Position numbers and translations under genes: made by a program
NCBI GenBank assembly: GCA_026004535.1
Contig: BPJI01000001.1
Location: forward strand, 431,424 to 495,423
Source of the DNA: Candidatus Parcubacteria bacterium
GTDB lineage: Bacteria; Patescibacteriota; Minisyncoccia; UBA6257; HR35
Direction of reading: 5' to 3'
Length of the DNA stretch: 64,000 bases
Part shown: piece after piece, positions 2,836-55,198 of the stretch
Numbering within the stretch: the stretch's first letter is position 1
Layout: every line of letters starts with the position of its first letter
The notes under the pieces: model-generated
What the model was told of the DNA's origin: nothing
What the model saw: only the letters and a program-made list of their open reading frames with translations
Databases searched by the model: none

Positions 2836-3356
2836 TTTGTCTGTAAATTTAATTCAATATTCAAATTATTGTTAATTTTATCAATTTTAAAATTGATTGT
2901 TTGCCAAATTAAACCACTTTCAATCATAAAATTGGAAAATTTTTCCAAATCGCTCTCGGGCAACTGAAAAATAAAAGTTAATTTTTTTTCTTGTTGATTA
3001 AAACTTGTTGTTTGAATTGACCAATTCTCTTTTTGTAATTTTTCATTAACCAAATTTTTAGTTGTCTCAAAATCTCGATCTAATTTTTGATTAGCTTCAA
3101 ATAAAATTGTTTTTAATTCCTTACCAGTTTTTTGTTCAATCAAACTAACTATCTTTTTTATTTTATTTTGACTTTCAATTGTCGCTTGGTTTTGAATCAA
3201 TTTTTCTTTTAAATTATTAATCTCGTTTATTTTTGCCAAAGTTTTTTGGGAATAAAAATTAAGTATAAAAAAATAACCAACAGTTATCAGAAGAAAAATA
3301 AGAGTAAAAACAGCTATCTTTAAATAAATTTTATTTAATGTCTGATTATGGCCCAT
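2832..3356 (-). CDS. hypothetical membrane-anchored coiled-coil protein
   Basis: 174 aa with an N-terminal TM helix and a K/E/Q-rich coiled coil. It resembles PilN/PilO-type assembly proteins only in architecture. Confidence 0.35.
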   Translation of the reverse strand: MGHNQTLNKIYLKIAVFTLIFLLITVGYFFILNFYSQKTLAKINEINNLKEKLIQNQATIESQNKIKKIVSLIEQKTGKELKTILFEANQKLDRDFETTKNLVNEKLQKENWSIQTTSFNQQEKKLTFIFQLPESDLEKFSNFMIESGLIWQTINFKIDKINNNLNIELNLQTK

Positions 3357-3360
3357 TAAT

Positions 3361-3530
3361 TATTCATTACCCGGATATGGAACGGATAAATTAACTGGAT
3401 GTAAACCGGATGATATTATTAATTATTTTTACTCGGATTTACACCGGATAAACTACCCTGATTATAACCGGATATATCTGGTATTCATCCGGGTAATTAA
3501 TCAGGTATTTAATCCGGGTAATCTATTTAA
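3361..3530. repeat. ccggat-word repeat element (direct block, then inverted atccggg block)
   Basis: About a dozen (a)cccggat / aaccggat words at ~11-13 nt spacing, followed by the reverse-complement words catccgggtaa / aatccgggtaa. Confidence 0.8.
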
Positions 3531-5534: not shown

Positions 5535-6947
5535 ATGCTCTTAACTGGTTATGATTTAAGAGGTATTTTTAAAAAAGAATTGACTTTTGATGTTATTTAT
5601 CAAGCAACTAAACAGTTTTTTAAGAAATTAAAAATTAGAAAAGCCATTTTGGCTGTTGATGCAAATAGAAATAATTTTTTAATTAAAGATTTCTTAGAAA
5701 GAAATTTCAATCTTGAGTTTATTGGCGTTCTACCAACGCCAATTTTTTATTATAAAGTCATTAAAATAAAAATTCCTGGAATTATGATTACTGCTTCTCA
5801 TTTGCCTTTAAAATATTCGGGGTTGAAATTTATTTTAGAAAATGGCGAACCGTGGAAACCTTATATTAGCGCGTTGCCTTCGGGTCATACCCCCGAAGCC
5901 CACAGCCCTCGGAGTGCTATCGTACGCACCTCTGCCGGAATGACCCTCAGGCAAACGCGCCGGATAATTAATTTACAAAAGCACCAGATAATTAAGGAAT
6001 ATTTTAAAACTTTATTTTCTATCATCAAACCGAAAAAGAAAATTTTTGTTTGTTTTGATAAGAAAAATTTTTTTCTTAATGCTTCCCTACCCTATTTTGA
6101 AAAATTAAAAATTTTTCATCAAGATAATTCTCCAATTAAGATTAAATCTGATTTAGACAATGACAGAATTTTTGTTTATCTTAAAAAAAGAAAAATTCAT
6201 AATGATTTAATTTTTTATTATTTAGCTCTTTTGCCTCAATATAAGAAATTGGCTGTGCCAATATTTTTCAGTCAAAAACTAAGACAAGAACTTATTAAAA
6301 AAGGTAAGAAGATTTATTTTATTCCAACTGGACACTATTATTTCAAAAAAGCATTCAAAAAATATAATTTAGACTTAGGTTTTGAACCAAGTGGTCATTT
6401 TTATATGTTTAAAGATTTAAAAACAGAATCGCCCTATTTGGCCTTAGGTTTATTTTTACATTTATTAGCAGAACTTACGGACCTAACACAGACAGAACGG
6501 ACCAAACAGAGAATAGCCTTGGAGGAAATTTTAAAATTAAATAATTCACTTCAACTTTATCGTTTTGATATTAAGAAAATACAATCAGAAGAAAATGTTG
6601 TCTCTTTTTTGAAGAAGAGATATAAGTTAAAATTAAAAAAGTTTGACGGTTATTTATTATTTCCAAAGGAAAAAACAGAACTTACAAAACTAACACAGAA
6701 TTTAAATAAAAATACTATCGCAGAACTTACTGAACTAACACAGAACTTACAGAAAAATACTACCTCAGAAATTGCAGAACTAACACAGAACTCGCAGAAA
6801 AATTCAGTGAGTTCTGCGTCAGTTCAGCATGGTTCTGCGTTCTACCTGTATTTAAGGAAAAGCAAAACAGAAAATAAATTAAGAGTATCTTTTGAAGGCG
6901 ACAAAAAAATTCTCAAAGAAATAAAACAATGGCTCATGAAGATTTAA
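5535..6947 (+). CDS. phosphoglucomutase/phosphomannomutase-family protein carrying in-frame repeat insertions
   Basis: TASHLP (active-site Ser, SHNP-like) and GFEPSGH (GEESGH-like) phosphohexomutase motifs. Interrupted by a GC-rich ~100-nt insert and by ELTxLTQN repeat blocks. Confidence 0.6.
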   Translation: MLLTGYDLRGIFKKELTFDVIYQATKQFFKKLKIRKAILAVDANRNNFLIKDFLERNFNLEFIGVLPTPIFYYKVIKIKIPGIMITASHLPLKYSGLKFILENGEPWKPYISALPSGHTPEAHSPRSAIVRTSAGMTLRQTRRIINLQKHQIIKEYFKTLFSIIKPKKKIFVCFDKKNFFLNASLPYFEKLKIFHQDNSPIKIKSDLDNDRIFVYLKKRKIHNDLIFYYLALLPQYKKLAVPIFFSQKLRQELIKKGKKIYFIPTGHYYFKKAFKKYNLDLGFEPSGHFYMFKDLKTESPYLALGLFLHLLAELTDLTQTERTKQRIALEEILKLNNSLQLYRFDIKKIQSEENVVSFLKKRYKLKLKKFDGYLLFPKEKTELTKLTQNLNKNTIAELTELTQNLQKNTTSEIAELTQNSQKNSVSSASVQHGSAFYLYLRKSKTENKLRVSFEGDKKILKEIKQWLMKI

Positions 6948-21613: not shown

Positions 21614-23689
21614 TTAACGAATTGTTATTCCATATCTACTTTTTAAATTTTCTTCAATTTTCCGCATTTCTAAGTTAACATCTTCATCAGTTAAACTTCG
21701 TTGGGGGTGGAAAAAAATAAACCTGATTGTCATTGATTTTAAATTTGAAACCTCAGAATTTTGAGGAAAATAAACGTCAATTAATTTTATTTCCTGAAGA
21801 TAATTTATTTTTAATCTCTCAATTTCCATCTTTAATTGACTAAATTTAATTTTTTCATCAATAAAGAATGATAGATCTCTGATAATTTGAGGAAAAATTG
21901 GCCAAGGATGAAAAACTTTTTTCATCACAGATCTTTTTTTTAATGTATTTGTATCTAATTCAATTACACCAACATTTAAATCAATGTCCAGTTCGCTTAA
22001 AATTTTTTTCTTAATTAAACCCAAAATGCCGACATTATCAATTTTTATTCCTGCGGTTAAAAATTCGTTTTTAATTTCTTCTAATTTCAAATTCAAGCAT
22101 AATTCTGAAGCAATAAAATTTAAAACACCCTTTAATTCCTTTAAAATTTCTTCGGGTGTTAATTTACTGGCATAAACGATTCCCAAATGATATTTCTCAA
22201 CCACGGATTCACGCGGATTTAAAACGGATTTGCGCGGATTATATTGAGCCACGGATTCACGCGGATTTACACTGATCTCTTTATAAGCTACTTTACTTAT
22301 TTCAAAAATTTTGATTTCCTTAAAATTAAATTGATTAAGATAAACAGATTTTAATAAATTAGGAATTAAACTCGATTGAAAATATTTATAATTTTCACTA
22401 ATTGGATTTAAAACCTCGACCACGGATTTTCGCGGATTTAAAATATCAACCACGGATTCACGTGGATTTTCTATACGCATAACATCATTTAATCTATATA
22501 ATCCTTGCAGTTCTTTCTCTCCATAAAAACTATAATTATGACCTTCATCATAACCAGCTTTGGTTAATATTTTTCTTAAAAAATTATTAAAAACAATATC
22601 TTCTTCAATGAAAATTTCTCTTAAGGGTGATTCATAAATTGGTTTAATTTTATTTAAATCATATATCCTTATAATTTCTTCAACAATATCTGTTTCCGTT
22701 TGTAAATCTAATCTCTCCAAAGGTACAATTAATTGATCATTTTTAATTTTGATGCCTAATTTTTTAAAAATTTTCAAAATTTCTTTTTTATTAATTTCTA
22801 AACCGGTGATTTTTTTAACTTTGTCAAAATTAAATTTTATTTTAGTCTCCCTTAATTTTTTCTCTCCAAAAATTTTTCTTAAAACATCTCCGCCTAAATT
22901 TCTATTAATTAAATAAGAAACCCTATTTAAGGCTTGCAAAGCTCTTATTGGCGCTACTTTTCTTTCAAAACGAAAACTTGCTTCTGTTTTCAAATTTAAC
23001 TTTCTTGAAGTTTGATAAATTTTAGTCGGGTCAAAAACTGCCGCTTCAATAAAAATATTTTTTGTTTTTAAATCAATTTCTGCTGTTTTGCTTCCTTTAA
23101 TTCCAGCTAAACCTAAAATTTTTTCTTTATCAGCAATAACAATTTCATCACCTTGAAGCTCATATTCTTTCCCCTCTAAAGAAATAAATTTTTCTCCTTT
23201 TTTAGCTAAACGAACATAGATATTGCCTTTAATTTTGTCCAAATCAAAAATATGAAGTGGTGCCCCATATTCAATCATCACAAAATTAGATAAATCAACT
23301 AAAAAGTTAATTGAATTAAAACCGTAAAATTCAACAAATTCTTTTAACCAACCCGGAGAAGGTTTATTTTCAACATTTAAAATTATTCTGCCAAAATAAT
23401 AAGGCGCTAATTTTGAATTAACAATCACTTTGAAGTTTAAACTTTTTGCTTTAGATTGTAGATTGTTAATTTTTAATTCTTTTGAGATTAAATTTTTTAT
23501 TATTGCTACTTCTTTAGCTAAACCAATTAAACTCGCTGCATCAGGATAACGATTAGGCAAAATATCAACCTCTAAAATTCCATCATTATAAACAGTCTCG
23601 AAACTTTTCATTGTCAATTCACTAGCAATTTTTTCCCAGTCTAATTTTTTATTTAAATATTTTTCTAAATCTTTTATTCTAAATTTCAT
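21614..23689 (-). CDS. pheT: phenylalanine--tRNA ligase beta subunit, carrying in-frame cacggat repeat insertions
   Basis: B3/B4, B5 and C-terminal FDX-ACB domains. NPRESVV..NPRKSVV peptide repeats are encoded by cggatt word arrays at 22196-22270 and 22425-22478. Confidence 0.8.
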   Translation of the reverse strand: MKFRIKDLEKYLNKKLDWEKIASELTMKSFETVYNDGILEVDILPNRYPDAASLIGLAKEVAIIKNLISKELKINNLQSKAKSLNFKVIVNSKLAPYYFGRIILNVENKPSPGWLKEFVEFYGFNSINFLVDLSNFVMIEYGAPLHIFDLDKIKGNIYVRLAKKGEKFISLEGKEYELQGDEIVIADKEKILGLAGIKGSKTAEIDLKTKNIFIEAAVFDPTKIYQTSRKLNLKTEASFRFERKVAPIRALQALNRVSYLINRNLGGDVLRKIFGEKKLRETKIKFNFDKVKKITGLEINKKEILKIFKKLGIKIKNDQLIVPLERLDLQTETDIVEEIIRIYDLNKIKPIYESPLREIFIEEDIVFNNFLRKILTKAGYDEGHNYSFYGEKELQGLYRLNDVMRIENPRESVVDILNPRKSVVEVLNPISENYKYFQSSLIPNLLKSVYLNQFNFKEIKIFEISKVAYKEISVNPRESVAQYNPRKSVLNPRESVVEKYHLGIVYASKLTPEEILKELKGVLNFIASELCLNLKLEEIKNEFLTAGIKIDNVGILGLIKKKILSELDIDLNVGVIELDTNTLKKRSVMKKVFHPWPIFPQIIRDLSFFIDEKIKFSQLKMEIERLKINYLQEIKLIDVYFPQNSEVSNLKSMTIRFIFFHPQRSLTDEDVNLEMRKIEENLKSRYGITIR

Positions 23690-23700
23690 TGTTATGTATT

Positions 23701-23800
23701 ACCCGGATAACCAACCGGATTATTTTACCCGGATGATTACCGGATAAATCCGGTTTATATCCAGGTAGTATTATCCGGTTAATATCCGGGTAAAAATATT
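23701..23800. repeat. ccggat-word repeat element
   Basis: acccggataaccaaccggatt..., then atccaggta / atccggtta / atccgggtaa. Confidence 0.75.
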
Positions 23801-26780: not shown

Positions 26781-27152
26781 CTATTTAATACCCGGCGATG
26801 ACACAATCAACACCCAACTTTTTTTAACTAAATCTGCTTCTTCTAAAATGGGGTCAATAACTCTTGAAACCTTGGCACAGTCTTCGATATTTACTCCTCC
26901 TTCTTTATCAATTTTAATTATTAAAGCAAATCTACCATTTTCACTACCGAATTGAATATCAAACAATTTATAACCCATATCCTCGATTACTTCTTCAATC
27001 AATTCTCTGACTTTTTCTTTTAGGTCCATTAGATAAGCCCGCTGACAGCTGAAGAAAATTTTTTCAGGGCGATGATAGCTGCGACATTTATCATATACAG
27101 CCGACAGCTGCTGAAATTTTTCAACCGCGGGCAGCTGCAGATATATATTCAT
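26781..27152 (-). CDS. rimP: ribosome maturation factor RimP, N-domain only; the ORF's first ~40 codons are a cagctgc repeat element
   Basis: MDLKEKVRELIEEVIEDMGYKLFDIQF...VLIVSSPGI matches the RimP N-terminal domain. The upstream in-frame extension (27030-27152) lies inside the cagctgc array. The usual C-terminal domain is absent. Confidence 0.55.
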   Translation of the reverse strand: MNIYLQLPAVEKFQQLSAVYDKCRSYHRPEKIFFSCQRAYLMDLKEKVRELIEEVIEDMGYKLFDIQFGSENGRFALIIKIDKEGGVNIEDCAKVSRVIDPILEEADLVKKSWVLIVSSPGIK

Positions 27153-27535
27153 TAGGCAGACAGCAGCGGAAAATCTTAAAACGCAGACAGCTGCGGAAAT
27201 GCTTTAACTACCCGGATGGTCTATCGGATATAATTACCCGGATAGCTTATCGGATAATGTTTATCCAGATGAATACCGGATTATTTTATCCGGATGATTA
27301 CCGGATATTTATCTAACCGGATAACTTACCGGATATAGTTACCCGGATAAACTAACGGATATAATTACCCGGATTAATAACCGGATAAAAATACTCTATA
27401 TATCATCCGGTCTATATCCGGGTAGTTCTATCCGGTTCATAGCCGGGTAGTATTATACGATTATAATCCGGGCAGAAAATATTTTCAGCTGCTGTCTGCG
27501 GTAAATACTCTGACCACTGCTGTCCATATTAATAA
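27040..27535. repeat. composite repeat hotspot: cagctgc block, ccggat direct+inverted block, ctgctgtc block
   Basis: 27040-27200 holds gacagctg / cagctgc words. 27205-27480 holds ccggat and atccgg words. 27481-27535 holds cagctgctgtctgcg. Confidence 0.8.
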
Positions 27536-34720: not shown

Positions 34721-37501
34721 TTAATATTTCATTTGCAACCTTATTTTTCTATTAATTTTTGCTTTTTCTAAAATAACATTCTTTGTTTTTTCAAATCGCT
34801 TAAAGTTTTCTTGGTTCAAAAATTCTTCAAGTTCTTTTTCCTCAACAAAAGCACCGATATAAGGAATTGTTGATTTTAATATTTTAATTAAAACAAAATC
34901 ACTTTTACCTGGCCCACCACCTTTTTCTTCTAATTTTTGCCAATTTTCTTTTAACCAATTAAAAGTGAATTTTGCTGCATTTGAATTTAAAGAAACTGAA
35001 TTGAAAAAGAAAATAGTCTGATTAAATCTAACTTGTGAAGAAAGAATAAATTCAAAAATAGAACTTAACTTTTCTAAATTTTGTAAATTACCAAAAGCAA
35101 TTAAACATTTATTTTGTTCTTCAATCAAATTAGTCTGATGATAATAATTCAAAAGTTTTTCTAAATAGTTATCATTAGCAATTAAAGCATTATTAAAGAT
35201 TGCTTGTTTAATATCAGGATGAAGTTTTTCTTTGTCTTTTAAAAATTCTTCAAATTTTTCTTGGCTGAAATCTAAAATCTCTTTATTCTTCAAAATTCCC
35301 AAAGAAAATAGAGTTTTTTGCCTTAAAACTGTTTCATAAGGTTGTTCACCTTCCCTCGGCTCTTTTCCTAAAATATCCAAAACTTTTAAAGAAAATTTTT
35401 CTAATAAAGCGGAAAGGTCAGAAACGGACGCGGAACGAACGGAATAAGCGGAACTGGTTTTTCCGTCTGTTCCATTTTTTCCGTGTCCGTTTCCGTCTGT
35501 TCTGCTTTGATCTGTATCAATTCTGCGCAGTTCCGCGTTTAGTCTGCGTTGGTCTACGTCTATCCTGCGTTGGTCTGCGTTTAGTAAATAATAATAAAAA
35601 TTTAAATAAGAAATAATTTCACTAAAAACAAAGGGTTTAGAATTATTGATAAAATATTTTTCTAAAATTTCTAAAAAGTTTTCAAAATTTTTCTCACCCT
35701 TTCTAACTAACATATCATAATCATGAACTAAATGAACCTGATCAATTTCATTTAATTTTTCTAAATTCTCTAAATTTCTTTTTAGAATTTCTTCATCATA
35801 ATCACTAACAAAAAAACTTGAATAGTTTTTATTAAGAATAAAAGTTGAAAAATTAGATTCAGGAATTGGGGCGATTTCTTCTTTTTCTTTTAATATTTTT
35901 CTTTCTTCTTTATTATCAATTTCAATCACAAAAGGAATTTTCCAATAATCTTCTCTGTCTTCTAAAAATAAGAATCTCCTTTGTCTTAAACAGTATCTGC
36001 CTTGCTCTTTTTTAAAACTTACCAAAGGATAGCCAACTTTTTCAATATAATCTTTCATAATCTCAACCACTGGCACACTCGAAACTTCTTCTAAGCATTG
36101 CCACAAATCTTCTGCTTTAGCATTTTGATAAGTAAATTTTTTAATATACAGCCTCAATCCTTCTCTAAATTTTTCTTCACCTAAATAATTCTCAATCATC
36201 CTTAAAACACTGCCACCTTTTTCATAAGATATCTCATCAAAAATTTCAACTGACTCATTTGGATCTTTAACCTCAACTTTAATCGGGTGAGAAGCAATCA
36301 AACCATCAGCATTCAAAGCACTAAAAACTTCATCCAAAACATATTTTTCTAAAATTCTCCAATTAGGATAAAAATTATTAACAGCTTTATAAGCTAAATA
36401 AGTGGCAAAGCTTTCATTTAACCATAAATCGTCCCACCACTTCATTGTTACTAAATTACCAAACCACATATGAACTAATTCATGAGCAATAACTTCAGCA
36501 ATTCTTTCTTGGGTAGATTTTGGTGTTATGCCTTCGAAAACTAAAAGTAAATTCTCGCGAAAAGTAATTGCTCCCCAATTTTCCATTGCTCCAGCAGCAA
36601 AATCAGGAACAGCGATTAGATCTAATTTTTTTAAGGGATAAGGGGAATCAAAATATTCTTCTAAATAATTTAAAAATTTTTTAGCATTTTCTAAAGCAAA
36701 TCTTACTCCTTCTAATTTTTCCTTTGGCGTAACTGCCACTCGAATAATAACTTCTTTATATTTATCTTCAACAAAATACCAATCACCAATTCCAATATAC
36801 AAAAGATAAGTTGACATCTTGGGAGTTGTTTCAAAAATCACTTTTTTCTTTTCATTAACAATTTCTTCTTTAATTGGCAAAGTATTGGAAATTGCTTTTA
36901 ATTCTTTAGGAAAAATTAAAGTTAAATCAAACGTTGCTTTTTTATCTGGGTCATCAAAACAAGGAAAAGCTTTGCGTGCTTCAATTGGTTCAAATTGAGT
37001 TGTGATTAAACATTTTTCTTGTTCTTTGTCTTTATATTTACTTAAATAAATTCCTCCTAAAACCTCTTTTAATTCTCCTTCAAAATCAATAAAAATAGTA
37101 TTATCTTTTTCAGAAAAATTATTTTTAATCAAAATTCCATCTTTTTGAACTTCAAAATCTACATCTTGGTCATTCACTTTTAGCTGATTAATTTTTAAAT
37201 CAACAGCATCAATTTTTAGAAAATTACCCCGATGATCACCTGATAGATTACCCGGATAATTGTCTGGCATATTACCCGGATAATCACTGGATAAATCCGG
37301 TTCATATTCGGGTAGTATTATCCGGTTAATATCCGGGTGGTTCCATCCGGTTTGAATCCGGGTAGCTGTATCTGGTTTTAATCCGGGTAAACTAATTCTT
37401 ATCTCTTCTCTGCCTCGATAAATATTCTTCTCTAAATCAAAGTCTAATTCAATTTTATAATTTCTAACTTCCATTATTTTTCCTTGATAAATTTTCAACA
37501 A
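34721..37501 (-). CDS. pepN: aminopeptidase N (M1 family) with in-frame repeat insertions
   Basis: GAMENWG exopeptidase motif and HELVHMWFGNLVT...WLNESFA zinc motif. The acggaa/ctgcg element at 35395-35580 and the ccggat element at 37228-37392 sit inside the ORF. Confidence 0.85.
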   Translation of the reverse strand: MLKIYQGKIMEVRNYKIELDFDLEKNIYRGREEIRISLPGLKPDTATRIQTGWNHPDINRIILPEYEPDLSSDYPGNMPDNYPGNLSGDHRGNFLKIDAVDLKINQLKVNDQDVDFEVQKDGILIKNNFSEKDNTIFIDFEGELKEVLGGIYLSKYKDKEQEKCLITTQFEPIEARKAFPCFDDPDKKATFDLTLIFPKELKAISNTLPIKEEIVNEKKKVIFETTPKMSTYLLYIGIGDWYFVEDKYKEVIIRVAVTPKEKLEGVRFALENAKKFLNYLEEYFDSPYPLKKLDLIAVPDFAAGAMENWGAITFRENLLLVFEGITPKSTQERIAEVIAHELVHMWFGNLVTMKWWDDLWLNESFATYLAYKAVNNFYPNWRILEKYVLDEVFSALNADGLIASHPIKVEVKDPNESVEIFDEISYEKGGSVLRMIENYLGEEKFREGLRLYIKKFTYQNAKAEDLWQCLEEVSSVPVVEIMKDYIEKVGYPLVSFKKEQGRYCLRQRRFLFLEDREDYWKIPFVIEIDNKEERKILKEKEEIAPIPESNFSTFILNKNYSSFFVSDYDEEILKRNLENLEKLNEIDQVHLVHDYDMLVRKGEKNFENFLEILEKYFINNSKPFVFSEIISYLNFYYYLLNADQRRIDVDQRRLNAELRRIDTDQSRTDGNGHGKNGTDGKTSSAYSVRSASVSDLSALLEKFSLKVLDILGKEPREGEQPYETVLRQKTLFSLGILKNKEILDFSQEKFEEFLKDKEKLHPDIKQAIFNNALIANDNYLEKLLNYYHQTNLIEEQNKCLIAFGNLQNLEKLSSIFEFILSSQVRFNQTIFFFNSVSLNSNAAKFTFNWLKENWQKLEEKGGGPGKSDFVLIKILKSTIPYIGAFVEEKELEEFLNQENFKRFEKTKNVILEKAKINRKIRLQMKY

Positions 37502-39840: not shown

Positions 39841-39990
39841 ATTTTTACCCAGATTATAACCAGATAATACTACCCGGATATTAACCGGATATAACTACTC
39901 GGATTCAAACCGGATACAAATACCCGGATATAAACCGGTATTCATCCGGGTAATCTATCCGGTATTAATCCGGGCATATTAATAAAATCT
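39841..39990. repeat. ccggat-word repeat element
   Basis: taacccagat / aaccagat / acccggat words, then catccgggtaa / atccggtatt / aatccgggca words. Confidence 0.8.
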
Positions 39991-48116: not shown

Positions 48117-49614
48117 TTTTAACAACGACCTTTTTAATAATTGACCCTTGTTTAGTATCTTCAATTTTATAACCAGCTTCCAATACTTCTTCTCTAATTT
48201 TATCAGCTTCCTGCCACTTCCCTTCTTTTCTTAATCTTTCTCTTAATAAAACTTTCTTTTTAATTTCAGCTGGTAATTTTTGTTTTGCTAAAAATTCTTT
48301 GAATCCTAACCCCAAAATTTTATCAGCCTCTAAAACAAAAATTTTTTTAAATTTTAAATCTTCATCTGACTTTAAAATTTCCCATAATTTAGCAATTAAT
48401 CGAGGAGTATCAAGATCATAATTAACAATATTTAATATTTCTTTAAAAGCAGAATTATGCAGAACTAAATCAGAACTACCCAGAGCCGAGACTCGCTTGT
48501 CGCCAAATAGTGATTTATACAAATTAATAGAAAGATTAAAGCTGGAGATCGTCTCTAAAAGTAAGTTATATGCATTTTGAGCTGATTCCATTGCTTGCCA
48601 AGTAAAATTCATTTCTGAACGATAATGTGAGGTTAAAACTAAATATCTAAAAGCAAGCGGTTGAAAACCTTTTTTCTCAATATCTTCTAAAGTAATAATA
48701 TTTCCTAAACTTTTCGCCATTTTCTCTCCCTCAACTTTTAAAAAATTTACATGAAGCCAATAATTAACAAATTTTTTACCAGTTGCTGCTTCTGATTGAG
48801 CAATTTCATTAGTATGATGAATATCAATGTGATCAATACCGCCAGTATGAATATCGATTGTTTTACCTAAATATTTCATTGACATTGCTGAACATTCAAT
48901 ATGCCAACCAGGAAAACCAATGCCCCAAGGACTTCTCCATTCCATTTGTCTTTTCACATCTTTAGGTGAAAATTTCCATAGAGCAAAATCATACGGATTT
49001 CTTTTTTCAGGATTTATCTCAACTCTCGCGCCAGCTAATAATTTTTTCCTTTTAATTTGGGCCAATATACCATAATTTTTAAACTTAGAAGTGTCAAAAT
49101 AAATGCCATCTGAAATTTTGTAAGTATAGCCCTTTTTTTCTAAAATCTTTATAAGCTCAATCATTTCTTTTATATGCTGAGTTGCTCGAGGAAACTTAAA
49201 AGGAGTTTTGATATTTAATTTTTTAATATCTTCCTTGAAAATTTTTTCAAAATAACGTGCAATTTCCCAAGCAGTTTTTCTTTTTTCTCTGGCACTTTTT
49301 TCAATTTTATCTTCACCAGTATCAGCATCAGAGGTTAAATGTCCAACATCAGTAATGTTAATAATTTGTTTTACTTTATAGCCATTATACTCAAGTGTTC
49401 TTCTTAAGGTATCGGCAAAAATATAAGCTCTTAAATTACCAATATGAGGTCTTTCATAAACAGTTGGCCCACAATTATACATCGTTACTATCTTATCTTT
49501 CAAAGGTTTAAATTTTTCTTTTCTTCGAGTTAAGGTATTAAATAGATAAAGAGGCTCCATTAATTTAATTATAATTCGGTAATATCTCTTGGTAAAAATA
49601 AATTCAAAATCCAA
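48112..49614 (-). CDS. cysS: cysteine--tRNA ligase
   Basis: HIGNLRAY (HIGH motif) and KMAKSLGN (KMSKS motif). Confidence 0.9.
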
Positions 49615-51002
49615 TCAATAAATGTTTTAACTTGATCTCGAAAAGAAATCATTTTGCTTAAATAAACTCCTTTCCAAATAAACCAACTAATTAAACCAGA
49701 AAATTCAATTCCTTTAATTTCACCTAAGGCATAAAACCTACCAACTGAAATCAAATCGCCAGCATGTTTATAAATAAATTTCTGCAATGGTTTATTTTCA
49801 ATTAAATTTTTAATATTTAAAGCAACTAATTTTGCTTGTCTAACTGCAACTTGAGCTAATTGTGGTAATGGTTTTTGATCTTGAATAAAACAACAAACAT
49901 CACCAATTGCAAAAACATTATCATATACAGAACTACTCAGAACTGATGCAGGACTGACTGAATTATCTTTGGTTGCAGAACTATACTGAACTGACACTGA
50001 ACTAACAGAATTATTCTGTGAGTTCTGTATTGGTTCTGTATGTTCTGCATTATTCTGCAAATTCTGTGTAAGTTCAGCTCTTTCTGCGTCTATTTTCTTT
50101 TTCACCTGCAAATATTCATTTAAAACTAGTCTTCCTTTATTATCTTTTTCAACGTTACCAATAATTTCTGGTAAATTTGGTTCAACTCCTGCTGTCCAAA
50201 TAACTGTTTTTGTTTCAATAACATTACCGTCATCAAGTTTAATAAAATCTTCACCAACCTCAATTACTCCTTTTTCTAGTCTAACATCAACTTTTAATTT
50301 TTTTAACCTTTCAAGTGCTTTTTGTCTTAATTTTGGAGAAAATTGAGGAATTAATTCTTTGCCTTTTTCGATTAGAATTATTTTAACTTGTGAAATTAAA
50401 TCTGATGAATATAATTTACTAAATGTTTTATAAAACAAATCACTCATTTCACCAGCCAATTCAACTCCTGTTGCTCCACCTCCAACAATGACAAAAGTGA
50501 GATATTTATTTACCTTTTCTGGATATAAACTTCCTATTTCAAACATATGAACAAATCTATTTTTCAATCTTATAGCGTCATCAATTGTTTTTAAGGAAAA
50601 ACTATATTCTTTAGCCCCAGGAATATTGTAATAATTTGTTTTCGAACCTAAGGCAATAACTAGATAATCATAATTAACATTATAATCTTCTCTTTCTTTA
50701 TTTATGTAAACAATTTTGTTCTCTAAATCAATTTTTTCAACTTCTCCATGAACAAAATCAAAATCACAACATCTAATAATTTCTCTTATGGGTTCTAGGG
50801 CATTATCAATCGAAACTCCGCCAGTAGCAACTTCATGAAGTAAAGGCGTAAAAATAAAATAATTCTTTTTATTCACCAATACTAATTTTACTTTCTTATT
50901 ATGAAAAAGTTTATGTAAATGTTTTAAAGCATAAACACCACCAAATCCTCCACCTAAGATTACTATCTTCATTAAATAATCGGAAATAACGGAAACAAAC
51001 AC
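49569..51002 (-). CDS. ndh: type II NADH dehydrogenase / pyridine nucleotide-disulfide oxidoreductase with an in-frame cagaac/gttctg repeat insertion
   Basis: [12 protein letters not shown] motif and a second Rossmann motif [11 protein letters not shown]. The insert at 49925-50100 encodes [34 protein letters not shown]... Confidence 0.75.
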
Positions 51003-51540: not shown

Positions 51541-52845
51541 TTAAATTTTAGCACAAATTTCTAATAATCTATTATATTTTACTACTCTTTCACCTTGTAA
51601 AGGAACACCGATTTTAAAATAATCTGCACCAAAAGCAATTCCTAAATCAATTAGCCAATTATCATTTGTTTCGCCACTACGATGTGAAAAAATAGTAAAT
51701 AAATTATTTTCTTTGGCTAATTTAACAAAATTAAATGTTTCAGTTATGGTGCCGATTTGATTAGGTTTGACAATTACACCATCAACAGAATTTTTCTCTA
51801 AAGCAATTTTTAATCTTTCAATATTGGTCACTGTTAAATCATCGCCAATTACTTTAAATCCTTCTTTACGAAGTTCAGCAAATTTTTCAAATTCATTTTC
51901 TTTATATGGATCTTCTAAATATTTAACACCCAAAATTTTTAATTTTCGATAAACATTCTTCCAATTAACTATATTTGTTATTTGATTAGCAGCAATATCA
52001 GCTCCAAGCTCAAAATAAAAATTATTACCCGGATGATTACCGGATAAATCCGGTTTATATCCGGGTAAATTATCCGTATCCGGTTTAAATCCGGGCAACT
52101 TATCCGGTTGTAATCCGGGTAAATTATCCGGTTCATATCCGGATAAATTACTAGTTACTTCTTTTAAATATAAAAAAGGTTCATAATTATCACTAAAGTT
52201 TGTACAAAATGCTCCTTCATCGTTTCTTCCTAATGGTTTAGGCAATTTTTTTTCAATCTGATTAATAATACTAATGATCTTAGCGATTAAAAGTTCAAAA
52301 TATGCAGCATTGAAAGAATTTTTCCGTAAGTTCTGCGTCAGTTCCGTGTAGTGCTGTGTTATTAACCAATATTCCTGAAAATCTAAATTATTAAAAGAAT
52401 GCACTCCTCCACCAATAATATTTAAAATTAATCTTAGCATTCGTGTAGACTCGTCCTTATTTATTCGTGTAGATTCGTTTTTTAAATATTCAAACAACTC
52501 CAAATTTTTACTTTTAGCTAGAGCTCGAGCAAAACTGATTGAAACTCCTAAAGTAAAATTACCTCCTAATTTTTCTTTATTCTTCCCTGCTCTTTCAATT
52601 AAAAATTCATCTAATTCATTAAGATTTTGAAAATCTTTATTTTTTATATCTTTCAAAAATTCGCTTAAATTCTTTTTAATTTTTTCACAATCTAAACAAA
52701 CAACCTCATGAGAACCGATACTTTTCCCAGAAGGAATTGACGCTTTTTCTTTTATTCCTTCACTTTCAATCTCAACCTCGATTGTCCATTCTCCTCTTGA
52801 GTCTAAAATTTTATTTACTTTTATATCATTTATTTTCATCTTCAA
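51541..52845 (-). CDS. eno: enolase (phosphopyruvate hydratase) carrying three in-frame repeat-element insertions
   Basis: ILDSRGEWTIEVEI N-terminus, NDEGAF, YLEDP, IGDDLTVTN, KPNQIG, SHRSGETND and KYNRLLEI catalytic motifs. Inserts at 52024-52150 (ccggat), 52325-52360 (cagaac/ctgcg) and 52436-52480 (cgtgtagac). Confidence 0.85.
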   Translation of the reverse strand: MKMKINDIKVNKILDSRGEWTIEVEIESEGIKEKASIPSGKSIGSHEVVCLDCEKIKKNLSEFLKDIKNKDFQNLNELDEFLIERAGKNKEKLGGNFTLGVSISFARALAKSKNLELFEYLKNESTRINKDESTRMLRLILNIIGGGVHSFNNLDFQEYWLITQHYTELTQNLRKNSFNAAYFELLIAKIISIINQIEKKLPKPLGRNDEGAFCTNFSDNYEPFLYLKEVTSNLSGYEPDNLPGLQPDKLPGFKPDTDNLPGYKPDLSGNHPGNNFYFELGADIAANQITNIVNWKNVYRKLKILGVKYLEDPYKENEFEKFAELRKEGFKVIGDDLTVTNIERLKIALEKNSVDGVIVKPNQIGTITETFNFVKLAKENNLFTIFSHRSGETNDNWLIDLGIAFGADYFKIGVPLQGERVVKYNRLLEICAKI

Positions 52846-55198
52846 ATTTTTTAACTATCTCAATTGTCTTTATCACTACATCACTATTAACACTTATACT
52901 TTCAATTCCTTCTTTAACTAAAAGTTCAACGATTTCTGGAAAATCACTCGGTGCCTGTCCGCAAATTCCTACATATTTCTTCTTTTCTTTACATTTTTTA
53001 ATTACTTCACTAATTAATTTTTTGACTGATTCATTTCTTTCATCTGCTAAGCTCTGTAAAATTTCATTATCTCGATCAATTCCTAAAGTAAGTTGGGTTA
53101 GATCATTCGAACCAATTGACATTCCGTCAAAAAATTCTAAAAATTCATCTACTTGTAGAATATTTGAAGGTATTTCAGCCATTACATAAACTTTATAATT
53201 TTTTTCTTTTTTTTGACCTAAAATATTTTCGATTATTTCCATAACTTTTCTTCCTTCTTCAGGTGTTCGGCAAAACGGTACCATCATTGCTAAGTTTGAA
53301 ATCCTCATTTCCTCTCTAACTTTTTTCATTGCTAATACTTCAAGCTCAAAAGCTTGCTTAAATTTTGGATGATAATATCTACTTGCTCCTCGCCAACCGA
53401 TCATTGGATTTTCTTCTTCTGGTTCATAAAGATCTCCGCCAATTAAATTTCGATACTCATTGGTTTTAAAATCAGAAAACCTAACAATTACTTCATAGGG
53501 CCAATAAGCAACACAGATTTTAGCAATTCCTTCGGCTAATTTGTCAATAAAATATTGTTTTTTATTTTTATAGCCTCTGGTTAATTCATCAATTTTTTCT
53601 TTTATTTCCTCAGATAAATTAGGATAATCAATTAAAGCATTGGGATGAATTTTTATTTCTTCAGCAATAATAAATTCTTCTCGGGCAAGTCCAACGCCTT
53701 TAACTGGTAAGTACCACTTCTCCCAAGCTTCATCAGGAAGTCCAATATTGACATATATTTTTGTTTTTGTTTCTGGTAAATTTTCTAAATTATGCTCAAT
53801 AACTTCGTAATCAAGATTTCCTTTATAAACATAACCTGTAATTCCGGTAGAACAATCAATTGTCACTTCATCGCCTGTTTTTAAAACTTCTGTTGCCTTT
53901 TGAGTGCCAACAATTGCTGGAATGCCTAATTCACGAGATACTATTGCCGCATGACAAGTTCTTCCTCCTTTATCAGTAATTATTCCCTTGGCAATTTTCA
54001 TTATCGGCACCCAATCTGGGTCAGTCATTTCAGTAACTAAAATTTCTCCTTCTTGAAATTCATTTATTTTAGAAACATCTTTAATAACTCTTACTTTACC
54101 CGAAGCTATTTTTGAGCCAATAGCGATGCCTTTTAAAATAATTTCACCTTTTTCTTTTAATTTATATTCTTCATAAACATTATATTTTTTAGTTGAATGA
54201 ACTGTTTCAGCTCTTGCTTGAACAATATAGAGCTTGCCATCAATTCCATCTTTGGCCCATTCAATATCCATTGCTCTTCCATAATGTTTTTCGATAATTA
54301 ATCCCATCTTAGCCAACTCTAAAACTTCGTCATCATTCAAAGAATAATTTGTTTTTTCTTCTTCTTTTGTCTCTATTTCTTTTACACCTCTTTCTTCAGC
54401 ATAAATAATTTTTTTCACTTTCTCGCCTAATCTTTTACAAATAATACTTCCAAATCCTCTTTCTAAGCCCTCTTTAAAAACTATCCATTCATCAGGAATT
54501 ACTTTTCCTTGAACAATCAGCTCACCTAATCCCCAGACTCCATTAATAACAATAACTTTATTTAAACCAGAATCGGAATCAATCGTAAACATTACTCCAG
54601 AACTAGCCAAATCAGATCTTATCATTTTTTGAACACCAACAGAAAACTTAACCTGAAAATGATCAAATCCTTTTTCTTGTCTGTAAAAAATAGCTCTATC
54701 AGTAAACAAAGAAGCAAAACAATATTTTATTTTTTCTAAAAGATCTTTTTCAGTTACATTTAAATAAGTTTCTTGCTGCCCAGCAAATGATGCATCAGGA
54801 AGATCTTCGGCTGAGGCGCTACTTCTTACGGCAACTTGTAAATCTTCTCCATATTCTTCTTTTAGTTTCTCAAAAGCACCTAATATTTCCTTTTTAAAAT
54901 CTTCAGGAAATTCACCTTGTTTAATTAAATTTCTAATTATTTCTCCTGCTTTTTGTAATTTTTCAACATTATAGACATCTAAATTTTTTAAAGTTTCTTT
55001 AATTTTTTCTTCTAAGTTGTTATATTTTATAAAATAGTCATAAGCTTTAGTTGTAATTGCAAAACCGTTAGGAACCCTAACTCCTAAATCTGACAATTTC
55101 TGATACATCTCACCTAAATTAGCATTTTTTCCACCAACTATGCCAACGTCTTCTTTTTCAATCTCATTAAACCACAAAATATATTTTTCTTCCTTCAT
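52826..55198 (-). CDS. ppsA: phosphoenolpyruvate synthase (pyruvate, water dikinase)
   Basis: 790 aa. N-terminal WFNEIEKEDVGIVGGKNANLGEM, phospho-His motif GGRTCHAAIVSRELGIPAIVG, C-terminal PEP-utilising TIM barrel. Confidence 0.85.
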   Translation of the reverse strand: MKEEKYILWFNEIEKEDVGIVGGKNANLGEMYQKLSDLGVRVPNGFAITTKAYDYFIKYNNLEEKIKETLKNLDVYNVEKLQKAGEIIRNLIKQGEFPEDFKKEILGAFEKLKEEYGEDLQVAVRSSASAEDLPDASFAGQQETYLNVTEKDLLEKIKYCFASLFTDRAIFYRQEKGFDHFQVKFSVGVQKMIRSDLASSGVMFTIDSDSGLNKVIVINGVWGLGELIVQGKVIPDEWIVFKEGLERGFGSIICKRLGEKVKKIIYAEERGVKEIETKEEEKTNYSLNDDEVLELAKMGLIIEKHYGRAMDIEWAKDGIDGKLYIVQARAETVHSTKKYNVYEEYKLKEKGEIILKGIAIGSKIASGKVRVIKDVSKINEFQEGEILVTEMTDPDWVPIMKIAKGIITDKGGRTCHAAIVSRELGIPAIVGTQKATEVLKTGDEVTIDCSTGITGYVYKGNLDYEVIEHNLENLPETKTKIYVNIGLPDEAWEKWYLPVKGVGLAREEFIIAEEIKIHPNALIDYPNLSEEIKEKIDELTRGYKNKKQYFIDKLAEGIAKICVAYWPYEVIVRFSDFKTNEYRNLIGGDLYEPEEENPMIGWRGASRYYHPKFKQAFELEVLAMKKVREEMRISNLAMMVPFCRTPEEGRKVMEIIENILGQKKEKNYKVYVMAEIPSNILQVDEFLEFFDGMSIGSNDLTQLTLGIDRDNEILQSLADERNESVKKLISEVIKKCKEKKKYVGICGQAPSDFPEIVELLVKEGIESISVNSDVVIKTIEIVKKFEDENK

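Follow-up and report, generated by a model that had tools for sequence, protein, structure and literature searches.

How can an enzyme as conserved as enolase come to carry repeat arrays inside its reading frame, and what becomes of the enzyme when it does? The question is raised by the enolase gene (eno) of a Candidatus Parcubacteria bacterium, studied here within a window of 64,000 nucleotides (64 kb), the whole stretch of DNA that was analyzed. A first-pass annotation had described a 434-aa enolase with three inserts from three different repeat families and an intact catalytic apparatus. Translation of the window returns that open reading frame, with exactly the peptides that had been quoted (Table 1). 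The start of the gene overlaps the 3′-end of an upstream PEP-synthase gene (52826..55198) by 20 nt, a DoxX gene comes next after it, and the order ppsA-eno-DoxX is also found in relatives.

Table 1. Window positions of the enolase gene, of the three sites within it and of the intergenic palindrome closest to site 3
Feature	Position	Strand	Extent	Description
Enolase gene (eno)	51541..52845	-	434-aa ORF from TTG; 432 aa from ATG 52839 (NCBI call)	
Site 3 insertion	52015..52149	-	135 nt, 45 codons, residues 233-277, NLSGYEPDNLPGLQPDKLPGFKPDTDNLPGYKPDLSGNHPGNNFY	Cargo-less two-arm family A palindrome
Site 2 insertion	52306..52350	-	15 codons, residues 166-180, YTELTQNLRKNSFNA	Left arm, truncated, of a palindrome of family B (CAGAAC units)
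Site 1 block	52438..52479	-	Residues 123-136, NESTRINKDESTRM	Linker from N-domain to barrel strand 1
Intergenic family A palindrome	23701..23793			Nearest sequence twin of eno site 3

Judged by its sequence, eno is a real enolase gene under purifying selection, with the catalytic and Mg-binding residues intact. The product matches both Pfam domains, for the N-terminal capping domain (Enolase_N, PF03952, 7.4e-24) and for the C-terminal TIM barrel (Enolase_C, PF00113, 2.8e-37), its best enolase match in the PDB reaches 6e-48 (HMMER), and it is 100% identical to the protein P0001 ('MAG: enolase, Candidatus Parcubacteria bacterium'). All the catalytic and metal-binding motifs that had been named in the first-pass annotation are present. 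S42, H149, E158, E210, D283, E311, D336, K360, H388-R389-S390 and K411 are invariant across 105 relatives; we take them to be the equivalents of yeast S39, H159, E168, E211, D246, E295, D320, K345, H373, R374, S375 and K396. The dN/dS of the core is 0.11-0.17, a figure that refers to a divergence older than the insertion at site 3, and dS to the nearest orthologue is 0.30. An AF2 model of the product (pLDDT 84.9, pTM 0.86) superposes on solved enolases (TM ~0.78, E 1e-27); its confidence falls low at residues 168-176 and 237-273 and nowhere else. Both the selection estimate and the model agree with the earlier claim that the blocks are read in frame, lie in loops and spare the catalytic machinery. 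For 2-phosphoglycerate dehydratase activity (phosphopyruvate hydratase, EC 4.2.1.11), the low dN/dS and the conserved ppsA-eno order give indirect support.

The predicted enzyme would be a functional member of a compact, ~370-aa enolase subfamily of Patescibacteria/DPANN type, in which the median length is 390 aa and the minimum 367 (P0005 has 369 aa). The length of 434 aa had been read as a sign that the inserts replaced loops. This does not hold in a subfamily where 367-390 aa is typical: the window enolase is a core of ~370 aa to which ~60 aa have been added, ~44-45 at site 3, ~15 at site 2 and 0-4 at site 1. The three sites are insertion hotspots, containing 93% of all the insertion residues in the 105 relatives. 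At site 1 the window enolase has a length of 18 against a minimum of 11 among these relatives, at site 2 it has 23 against a minimum of 8, and at site 3 it has 48 against 3-5 in 96 of the 105.

Codon alignment indicates that the three sites are not equivalent in kind. Site 3 appears as a recent, full insertion. It is a clean 135-nt gap in P0002, P0003 and P0005, and each bearer of an insert at this site has nearest neighbors, at 90-94% core identity, in which the site is empty. The coding strand shows four forward units with a 24-nt period (CCGG spacing 11+13 = 24), followed by one reverse unit, with the hairpin centre at 52025-52068. A stretch of 43 nt (52025-52067) is 97.7% identical to intergenic DNA at 23725-23767, in contrast to the dS of 0.30 that separates the gene from its nearest orthologue. 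The hairpin is strong both as DNA (z = -5.4) and as mRNA (z = -5.8). Comparison of filled and empty sites gives a possible TAAT/GTAAT on either side, which in AT-rich DNA is indistinguishable from the unit's own end.

Site 2, by the same alignment, appears as an older, half-deleted remnant common to sister genomes. The ends of the insert are homologous with those in P0002 and P0003, and a full palindrome occupies the equivalent site in P0004. The right arm of family B (GTTCTG units, '...VSSASV...') is absent from the window enolase. An HMMER-to-PDB alignment offered another reading, in which TELTQNLRKNS merely replaces a native helix, TSISEAVRMGS; it was rejected, as the compact subfamily shows a true addition of 15 codons.

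Site 1 reads as a same-length substitution patch. It consists of two copies of GARTCTACACGAAT (52439-52452 and 52463-52476), a local direct repeat 24 nt apart, with no further copy in the 64-kb window and no net length change relative to the nearest relatives, P0002 and P0003. At this site P0004 has (GAA TCT ACG CGA ATT GGA AAC) x4, and the E-S-T-R-I motif occurs also in the left arms of CCGAAT-type elements in relatives. The 'cgtgtagac' block had been counted as an insert from a repeat family of its own, a status that it loses here. Two dispersed families and two net insertions are demonstrable in eno within the window; of the three inserts and three families first proposed, the third of each is withdrawn.

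The AF2 model places all three sites between secondary-structure elements. They would lie on the non-catalytic face of the barrel, a placement that we infer from strand polarity and the positions of the catalytic residues in the model. Sites 2 and 3 are predicted to be disordered, with pLDDT below 50 at residues 168-176 and of 29-36 over site 3.

Where do the repeats come from? The CCGGAT array, already noticed in the first-pass annotation, is real and far beyond chance. The hexamer ATCCGG occurs 90 times in the 64-kb window against 8.3 expected, and the 21-nt unit of this family (family A) 47 times against 0 expected, five of the 47 being in eno. Family A forms 13 arrays in the window, mostly intergenic; it is in frame within eno and within an M1 aminopeptidase gene, and in the latter the unit is read in three reading frames. 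Its density is 1.4 copies per kb in the window vs. 0-0.15 in the closest sister loci. In general, the arrays consist of 12-13-nt units followed by their reverse complements, with asymmetric arms and a total length of ~40-300 nt. The intergenic twin of site 3 is a near-perfect single long hairpin with four units per arm (z = -5.5). Fold z-scores for family A and eno range from -5.4 to -5.8, and none of 200 shuffles folds as well. The period is 24 nt at eno site 3 vs. 25-26 nt in the intergenic arrays. The CAGAAC/CTGCG block likewise proved to belong to a dispersed family (family B), whose 21-mer has four matches in the window against 0 expected, at 52318-52338 (eno), 6738, 6783 and 27614. Full palindromes of family B are present in NDH2 and in the ORF at 5535-6947, and the family is in frame in eno, NDH2 and a PGM-like ORF. 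At the gathering threshold, Rfam finds nothing but two tRNAs in the window, and no intron or other RNA family on eno.

Outside this genome, the hairpin centre of eno was found in six metagenome contigs. Five of the six copies lie inside an ORF of at least 120 aa and share the reading frame used in eno; two of these frames resemble Sua5 and MurF, by motifs judged by eye. The hairpin centre has no match among viral contigs, and hence no sign of a phage origin. A scan of genome contigs with a pattern of 16 specified bases gave, among the matches listed, only single chance ones in unrelated phyla.

In relatives of the window enolase, such arrays form the inverted-repeat arms of a longer element that carries a GxxExxY domain, an aspect that the first-pass annotation had missed. 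PF13366 (GxxExxY) is present in frame in 14 of the best 120 enolase homologues. Two of these have it at site 1 with family A arms (P0009, P0068), and in the remaining 12 it lies at site 3, between arms that belong to two further families. The NDH2 gene of L003 contains an in-frame PF13366 as well, flanked by CGCAGAC arms. The embedded ORF encodes ~123 aa, lacks both a start and a stop codon and sits exactly at the hairpin loop. The inverted repeats around it measure 44 nt (75%), 21 nt (86%) and 36 nt (75%). The embedded domain matches TIGR04256 (7e-30 and 4e-35) with the D...ExK motif intact. GxxExxY (PF13366) belongs to the PD-(D/E)XK nuclease superfamily. The nuclease lineages follow the arm families, identity being 0.91 within and 0.52 between them. 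In 20 of 21 pairs, nucleases with CCGAAT arms are conserved above the cores of their host enolases, the pattern that horizontal, site-specific spread would be expected to leave. PF13366 is without experimentally known function (PMC3424549).

A six-frame HMM scan of the 64-kb window detected no GxxExxY domain, and no transposase or RAYT (Y1_Tnp) was found there; an autonomous partner for the family A arrays is thus not seen in the window. The ten small ORFs beside arrays are housekeeping or unknown, and rimP is the one that family A arrays bracket. GC-rich inverted repeats are absent from the flanks of two free-standing GxxExxY genes of other Patescibacteria (L124 and L125), which shows that not every member of the family has arms. 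Searched against the protein database, the nuclease domain matched free-standing proteins only, 101-171 aa long (mostly 124-135), and no further embedded copies. The arrangement was not found described in the literature on in-frame repeats of Parcubacteria and Patescibacteria, on GxxExxY or on PF13366.

These observations make it quite likely that the window holds a functional enolase whose gene, as DNA, has been colonized by short palindromic repeat arrays. The array at eno site 3 looks like the cargo-less form of the arm-GxxExxY-arm element, and the presence, in related genomes, of repeats flanking a nuclease-like gene at matching spots suggests a little-known mobile element inside essential genes. 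More tentatively, and at a little short of an even chance, we consider that the arrays may be the ends of an undescribed mobile or homing element of Patescibacteria. It would comprise two inverted arrays of 12-13-nt units and a start-less, stop-less GxxExxY nuclease ORF, expressed only as an in-frame, unspliced domain of an essential host protein in permissive loops. The cargo-less copies would be a non-autonomous form or a landing pad.

The mechanism that we propose starts from what the sequences show: the anatomy of the arrays, the dispersed occurrence of families A and B, the insertion hotspots, the arm-cargo-arm layout in relatives and purifying selection on the enolase core. The array, as DNA or RNA, would fold into a long hairpin, and the arms would serve as cis-acting ends used for mobility. 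The GxxExxY protein would be the mobilizing or homing nuclease. Cargo-less copies may be non-autonomous or deletion derivatives or, alternatively, landing pads. Insertions would persist where the arms have a length divisible by three and contain no stop codon in the translated frame; the period at site 3 may have shifted to 24 nt. The landing spots would be permissive loops, two of them at the N-termini of barrel strands 1 and 3 and one at the C-terminus of the antiparallel strand 2, on the side of the barrel that faces away from the active site. Translation of the arms would there yield disordered loops rich in Pro/Gly/Asp/Asn or in Thr/Gln/Asn. At site 1, a third arm-like motif may be present as two units that add no length.

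The blocks could instead have arisen in place without any mobile element, in the manner of minisatellites, by replication slippage or duplication of native sequence. Local instability is visible in the 24-nt tandem period at site 3, in (ESTRIGN)x4 at site 1 of P0004, in the first half of site 1 in the window, which is one base off the native EYTRI codons of P0002, and in the varying length of the common insert at site 2. It leaves unaccounted for the 98% identity of 43 nt of site 3 to an intergenic copy 28 kb away, the 47 dispersed units of family A in the window, the recurrence of the hairpin centre in other reading frames and other metagenomes, and the arms that flank a nuclease-like ORF in relatives. 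Slippage probably lengthened the arms once they were in place and may also account for site 1, but it does not explain how sites 2 and 3 arose; as an account of the whole it is unlikely.

An explanation at the protein level, in which the loops are selected functional modules (for surface binding or moonlighting, oligomer contacts or thermoadaptation) and the likeness in DNA is secondary, seems to us just as doubtful. The peptide frame LPG[FY]KPD..SGNHPGN does recur in five ORFs of other metagenomes, and inserts persist in several lineages. The recurring frame, however, is one of the few that are stop-free, and the identical DNA units are mostly intergenic hairpins. Selection for a peptide also fits poorly with family A units in three different frames of the M1 aminopeptidase, with a sporadic distribution in which the closest relatives have empty sites, and with the predicted disorder of the inserts.

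A third possibility is that the inserts are removed before the enzyme matures, by RNA excision, translational bypass or intein-like splicing. An intein has a Hint splicing domain, an N-terminal Cys or Ser, a C-terminal His-Asn and a +1 nucleophile. The mRNA hairpins at site 3 are very stable, and true inteins occur in the neighboring PEP synthase of relatives. Against removal, the frame stays open through all the blocks, the shift of the site 3 period to 24 nt matters only if the array is translated, and no intron or other RNA family of Rfam is matched. Pfam gives no intein match on the window enolase. The insert of 45 aa is far below intein size, and its junctions (N before LSG, and NFY before F) offer no Cys, Ser or Thr nucleophile. 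Removal is accordingly very improbable. That the gene is an assembly artefact or a decaying pseudogene is barely credible: mis-assembly readily affects repeats, and the DNA comes from a metagenome-assembled genome, but the identical protein is present on a 556-kb contig, homologous inserts stand at matching codons in independent JGI, ENA and NCBI assemblies, and the ORF is intact, with every catalytic residue and the low dN/dS of its core.

If the arrays are indeed the ends of a mobile element, PF13366/TIGR04256, a widespread family of unknown function, would gain a biological role, and the idea that GxxExxY is the nuclease of an in-frame mobile element is concrete enough to be tested. Three loops on the non-catalytic face of a central, highly conserved enzyme can apparently take up 15-45 aa or, in relatives, more than 200 aa. 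The arrays would be a source of rapid variation in protein length and of disordered loops in tiny genomes; they also inflate and fragment gene calls and alignments in genomes of the Candidate Phyla Radiation (CPR). A compact enolase with mapped permissive sites could guide domain-insertion engineering.

Among known systems, the closest analogue is the Rickettsia palindromic elements (RPEs), which were reportedly described by Ogata et al. in 2000 (Science 290:347) and 2002 (Genome Res 12:808). The likeness is in dispersed palindromes that form long stem-loops, intergenic as well as in frame in conserved housekeeping genes, where fold and function can accommodate them, with many copies per small AT-rich genome. 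RPEs are discrete units of 105-146 bp with family-specific sequence, confined to Rickettsia and with analogues in Wolbachia (PMC2229807, PMC10969869). For a guanylate kinase that bears an RPE, translation and retained activity have been shown experimentally (PMC2229807). The elements of eno type, in contrast, are variable arrays (~40-300 nt) of 12-13-nt sub-units with asymmetric arms. As variable arrays, and in a Candidatus Parcubacteria MAG, they are an analogue of RPEs and not a member. Protein-coding cargo is not described for RPEs in these two papers (PMC2229807, PMC10969869), whereas full-length relatives of the present elements carry the GxxExxY ORF. Protein-coding palindromes, so far essentially a matter of Rickettsia and Wolbachia, would in this way extend to the CPR.

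MITEs and their parent insertion sequences, of which Correia, ERIC and RUP are examples (PMC2229807, PMC10969869), share the terminal inverted repeats, seen here in the forward and reverse arm units of site 3 and in its near-perfect intergenic twin. Some MITEs are likewise fused in frame to host ORFs. Short non-coding versions beside longer ones with an ORF between matching ends may be a further parallel: family A arms do flank a PF13366 ORF in P0009 and P0068, but no such ORF lies in the window. The candidate partner here differs in being a 123-aa protein of PD-(D/E)XK type, translated within the host protein, rather than a transposase gene of the DDE, serine or tyrosine type. In place of single TIRs there are tandem arrays, and no target-site duplication could be made out at site 3 beyond the possible TAAT/GTAAT.

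Inteins and homing endonucleases resemble the elements in that an ORF of a nuclease family lies in frame in essential, conserved genes and recurs at one site across lineages, with element identity above host identity, as is typical of homing. In contrast to inteins, the elements have no splicing domain or junction nucleophiles and are flanked by inverted-repeat arrays of DNA. The insertion apparently stays in the mature protein and occupies a surface loop off the active site, whereas inteins occupy a conserved catalytic motif. The window enolase has arms only and no nuclease.

REP sequences and REPINs are palindromes tagged with GTAG/CGTC and associated with RAYT transposases (PMC3733652). They too are short and GC-rich against an AT-rich background, lie mostly outside genes, often in tandem or inverted clusters, and have as proposed mobilizer a gene with inverted copies on both sides. 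The differences are that no RAYT (Y1 transposase) was seen in the window, that the flanked ORF is of PD-(D/E)XK type and that the arrays enter coding sequence in frame. About 18 of the 47 family A units begin with CTAC, the reverse complement of which ends in GTAG; the other units, including all five in eno, begin with TTAC, TTGC or TTAT.

The repeat blocks in the enolase gene (eno) are real and more interesting than first stated, although two points of the first-pass annotation need correction: its count of three inserts and its view that they replaced loops. The repeat peptides quoted there are encoded exactly so in the open frame (51541..52845), which could alternatively start at an ATG at 52839 to give 432 aa. 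The product matches Enolase_N (7e-24) and Enolase_C (3e-37) of Pfam, its best relatives of solved structure score 6e-48, and it is 100% identical to a protein of an NCBI 'Candidatus Parcubacteria bacterium' MAG entry (556-kb contig). An AlphaFold2 model built on an alignment of 105 relatives (pLDDT 84.9, pTM 0.86) superposes on solved enolases with a TM of about 0.78. The catalytic and Mg-binding residues had been read as intact, and the equivalents of yeast enolase S39, H159, E168, E211, D246, E295, D320, K345, H373/R374/S375 and K396 are all present and invariant in 105/105 relatives. The core is under purifying selection (dN/dS = 0.11-0.17).

The window enolase is a member of a compact subfamily. 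The 105 close relatives are 367-506 aa long (median 390), and those that are insert-free (P0005, from 'bacterium HR35', P0049, P0061, P0108, P0115 and P0120) are 367-374 aa long. The alignment has 369 core columns. To this core site 3 adds about 44 aa (48 aa between anchors vs. 3-5 in 96/105 relatives), site 2 about 15 aa (23 aa vs. a minimum of 8 among the 105), and site 1 only 0-4 aa (18 aa vs. 11-18 in the shortest). The 434 aa are therefore the outcome of net additions to a small enzyme; that the inserts had replaced loops, as the length was once taken to mean, is wrong.

Features in the window and at related loci
Feature	Position	Strand	Description
eno (enolase)	51541..52845	minus	single open frame, 434 aa, TTG start
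Site 1	52438-52479	minus	two-copy direct repeat, GARTCTACACGAAT, copies 24 nt apart
Site 2	52306-52350	minus	residues 166-180; family B
Site 3	52015-52149	minus	residues 233-277; 45 codons inserted cleanly, absent from P0002, P0003 and P0005
NDH2 (type II NADH dehydrogenase)	49569-51002	minus	complete in-frame family B palindrome at 49928-50089
M1 aminopeptidase	34721..37501	minus	GAMEN and HELVH...WLNESFA motifs, from reading the translation
Phosphoglucomutase/phosphomannomutase-like ORF	5535-6947	plus	TASHLP motif; arrays 6469-6498, 6675-6840
rimP	26784-27203	minus	family A arrays at either end
Long intergenic family A arrays	12295-12606, 27205-27472, 3355-3522, 10332-10527, 39846-39973		asymmetric arms
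In-frame GxxExxY domains	L122:10349-10954, L123:9694-10317 (enolase); L003:12250-12990 (NDH2)		inverted-array arms at each

The blocks at the three sites are of three distinct kinds. Site 3 is built of units of a palindromic CCGGAT repeat (family A, consensus TTACCCGGATNNNNACCGGAT), which has 47 unit matches in the window vs. 0 expected; the ccggat array is a genuine in-frame insertion, as had been proposed, and belongs to a dispersed family. The hexamer ATCCGG occurs 90 times vs. 8.3 expected in the window (28.5% G+C, 92% coding), and there are 13 arrays, mainly intergenic and up to about 310 nt long. In each, forward units are followed by reverse-complement units to make a palindrome, and the eno copy and its intergenic twin fold far better than shuffled sequences (z = -5.4 to -5.8). 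With a CCGG spacing of 11+13 = 24 nt, the array in eno keeps the reading frame; the intergenic arrays have a period of 25-26 nt. Over 43 nt, the eno copy matches the intergenic copy at 23725-23767 with 97.7% identity, set against a synonymous divergence of 0.30 between this eno and its nearest orthologue, where site 3 is empty; the eno copy therefore arose, or was last converted, recently.

Site 2 belongs to a second palindromic family (CAGAAC/GTTCTG; family B), a 21-mer from it having 4 matches in the window vs. 0 expected. CAGAAC-type units translate to AELTQN[LS]QKN[ST] and GTTCTG-type units to VSSASVQ..SSA. Complete in-frame copies are found in NDH2, in the phosphoglucomutase-like ORF (6675-6840) and at site 2 of the enolase homologue P0004; the window enolase has the left arm only. 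The ends of its insert are homologous to those of the relatives P0002 and P0003, whose versions are longer in the codon alignment; the insertion is therefore old and was later trimmed.

At site 1 the length is identical to that in P0002 and P0003, and KEYTRIKEDEFKQI and NESTRINKDESTRM differ there by substitutions only. Thus, of the three inserts claimed, sites 2 and 3 hold as true insertions and site 1 does not. Of the three families claimed, A and B are dispersed in the window, whereas the cgtgtagac motif of site 1 has no further copy in the 64 kb. At site 1 of P0004 the motif is present as four tandem 21-nt repeats, with more ACGCGAAT copies in the ppsA and NDH2 of P0004, and the E-S-T-R-I peptide recurs in left arms of CCGAAT-type elements of relatives. 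A third family behind site 1 is plausible, though not demonstrable within this window.

The repeat invasion is a DNA-level, genome-wide phenomenon. The M1 aminopeptidase (arrays at 37250-37388 and 35499-35580) reads through a family A array with a period of 25 nt, so that reading of the unit passes through all three frames; a second array encodes LNADQRRIDVDQRRLNAELRRIDTDQ. Near the C-terminus of the phosphoglucomutase-like ORF, 2.8 family B units of 45 nt stand in tandem together with the reverse arm (AELTELTQNLQKNT...SVSSASVQHGSA), and NDH2 of sister genomes retains family B remnants at the site of the window's palindrome. (NDH2 of the related locus L007 has an additional N-terminal insert.) When metagenomes were scanned for the exact pattern of the family A hairpin centre, six contigs matched (L116-L121; JGI Ga0272449, Ga0078972, Ga0080004); no match came from viral contigs. 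In 5/6 the centre lies within an ORF of at least 120 aa and reads LPG[FY]KPD[KI]SGN[HY]PGN, the eno frame. By motifs seen by eye, one of these ORFs (L119) resembles a Sua5/YrdC protein and another (L121), with DDSYNANP, a MurF ligase.

Site 1 of the model is flanked by helix 117-124 and by strand 138-145, the strand running on to the catalytic loop of H149. Site 2 follows strand 158-163, which starts with catalytic E158, and precedes helix 180-200. Site 3 connects helix 222-236 to strand 278-283, which finishes with the Mg ligand D283. Strand polarity and the positions of these residues would place all three sites at strand ends opposite the active site. The pLDDT is below 50 only at residues 168-176 and 237-273, and about 72 at site 1. 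Sites 1-3 hold 333/353 non-core columns and 93% of inserted residues in the 105 relatives. Every bearer of a site 3 insert has nearest neighbours (90-94% core identity) with an empty site, which implies repeated gains at one hotspot, or else repeated precise losses. Family A occurs at exactly the window's site 3 codon and frame in P0008 and P0027 (76 and 75% core identity to the window enolase), whose contigs have family A elsewhere too; the window's closest relatives have essentially none.

In relatives the arms can enclose cargo. Among the best 120 homologues, 14 enolases (554-659 aa) have an in-frame 123-aa GxxExxY (PF13366) nuclease-like domain, which matches TIGR04256 (7e-30 and 4e-35) with its D...ExK motif intact. 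A PD-(D/E)XK survey gives the function of PF13366 as 'Unknown' (PMC3424549). Two enolases have the cargo at site 1 between family A arms (NLPGYKPDILPGYLPD... domain ...DPSGNHPGNSSGNHP) and 12 at site 3, 7 with CCGAAT/ATTCGG arms and 5 with a fourth arm type. NDH2 of the sister genome L003 has the domain between CGCAGAC/GTCTGCG arms, away from the window's family B site. The flanks are inverted repeats (44 nt/75%, 21 nt/86% and 36 nt/75% complementarity) 446-514 nt apart, and the cargo occupies the place where arrays without cargo have their hairpin loop. Literature searches found no published description of this in-frame arrangement. The nuclease domains share an identity of 0.91 when their arms are of one family and of 0.52 when the arm families differ, even for two lineages that both occupy site 3. 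The CCGAAT-armed domain is more conserved than its host core in 20/21 pairs (average 96% vs. 89%), which fits horizontal, site-specific spread. The fourth lineage has the opposite pattern, the domain being less conserved than the host core, as would be expected of old vertical copies.

The closest known system is that of the Rickettsia palindromic elements (RPEs), dispersed repeats that form stem-loops and occur as in-frame fusions within conserved genes, with translation and tolerance shown in guanylate kinase (PMC2229807, PMC10969869). The present elements, whose translation is predicted, work in a similar way but fall outside the RPE family: their hosts belong to another phylum, each element is a variable array of 12-13-nt units where RPEs are discrete 105-146-bp units, and nuclease-like cargo is associated with them. 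As in MITE/IS pairs, there are terminal inverted repeats and both long and short forms; as in REP/RAYT systems, GC-rich palindromes occur in clusters. Neither a RAYT nor a classical transposase was seen with the elements in the 64-kb window. Like inteins, the elements are recurrent same-site, in-frame nuclease insertions, but without any splicing apparatus.

Beyond the observed anatomy, dispersal, hotspots and arm-cargo-arm architecture, we propose that a mobile or homing element has these arrays as its cis-acting ends and, when autonomous, would encode the GxxExxY nuclease, translated within the host protein. The site 3 array would be the cargo-less form, either a deletion derivative or a landing pad, in which in-frame 24-nt slippage may have enlarged one arm after insertion. 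Selection would keep only stop-free, multiple-of-three copies in the three permissive loops, the survivors being translated as predicted disordered segments. The 64-kb window has no GxxExxY nuclease copy or transposase, arms are absent at two free-standing GxxExxY genes of other Patescibacteria, and no target-site duplication is definable.

Other repeats and insertions are present. A GC-rich family on GACAGCTGC (27040-27200 and 27480-27500) lies upstream of rimP and adjoins a family A array; CAGCTG occurs 15 times in the window vs. 3.7 expected. A further family (TTTACACGGAT / ATCCGTG) forms an intergenic palindromic array (16378-16634) and a 30-nt x 2.2 repeat (22404-22469), in frame in ORF 21617-23698. 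The eno-adjacent PEP synthase is intein-free in the window (52826-55198, 790 aa), L001 and L003, and has a LAGLIDADG intein at L004:6328-10014, L005:2101-5736 and L007:6130-10014 (1211-1294 aa).
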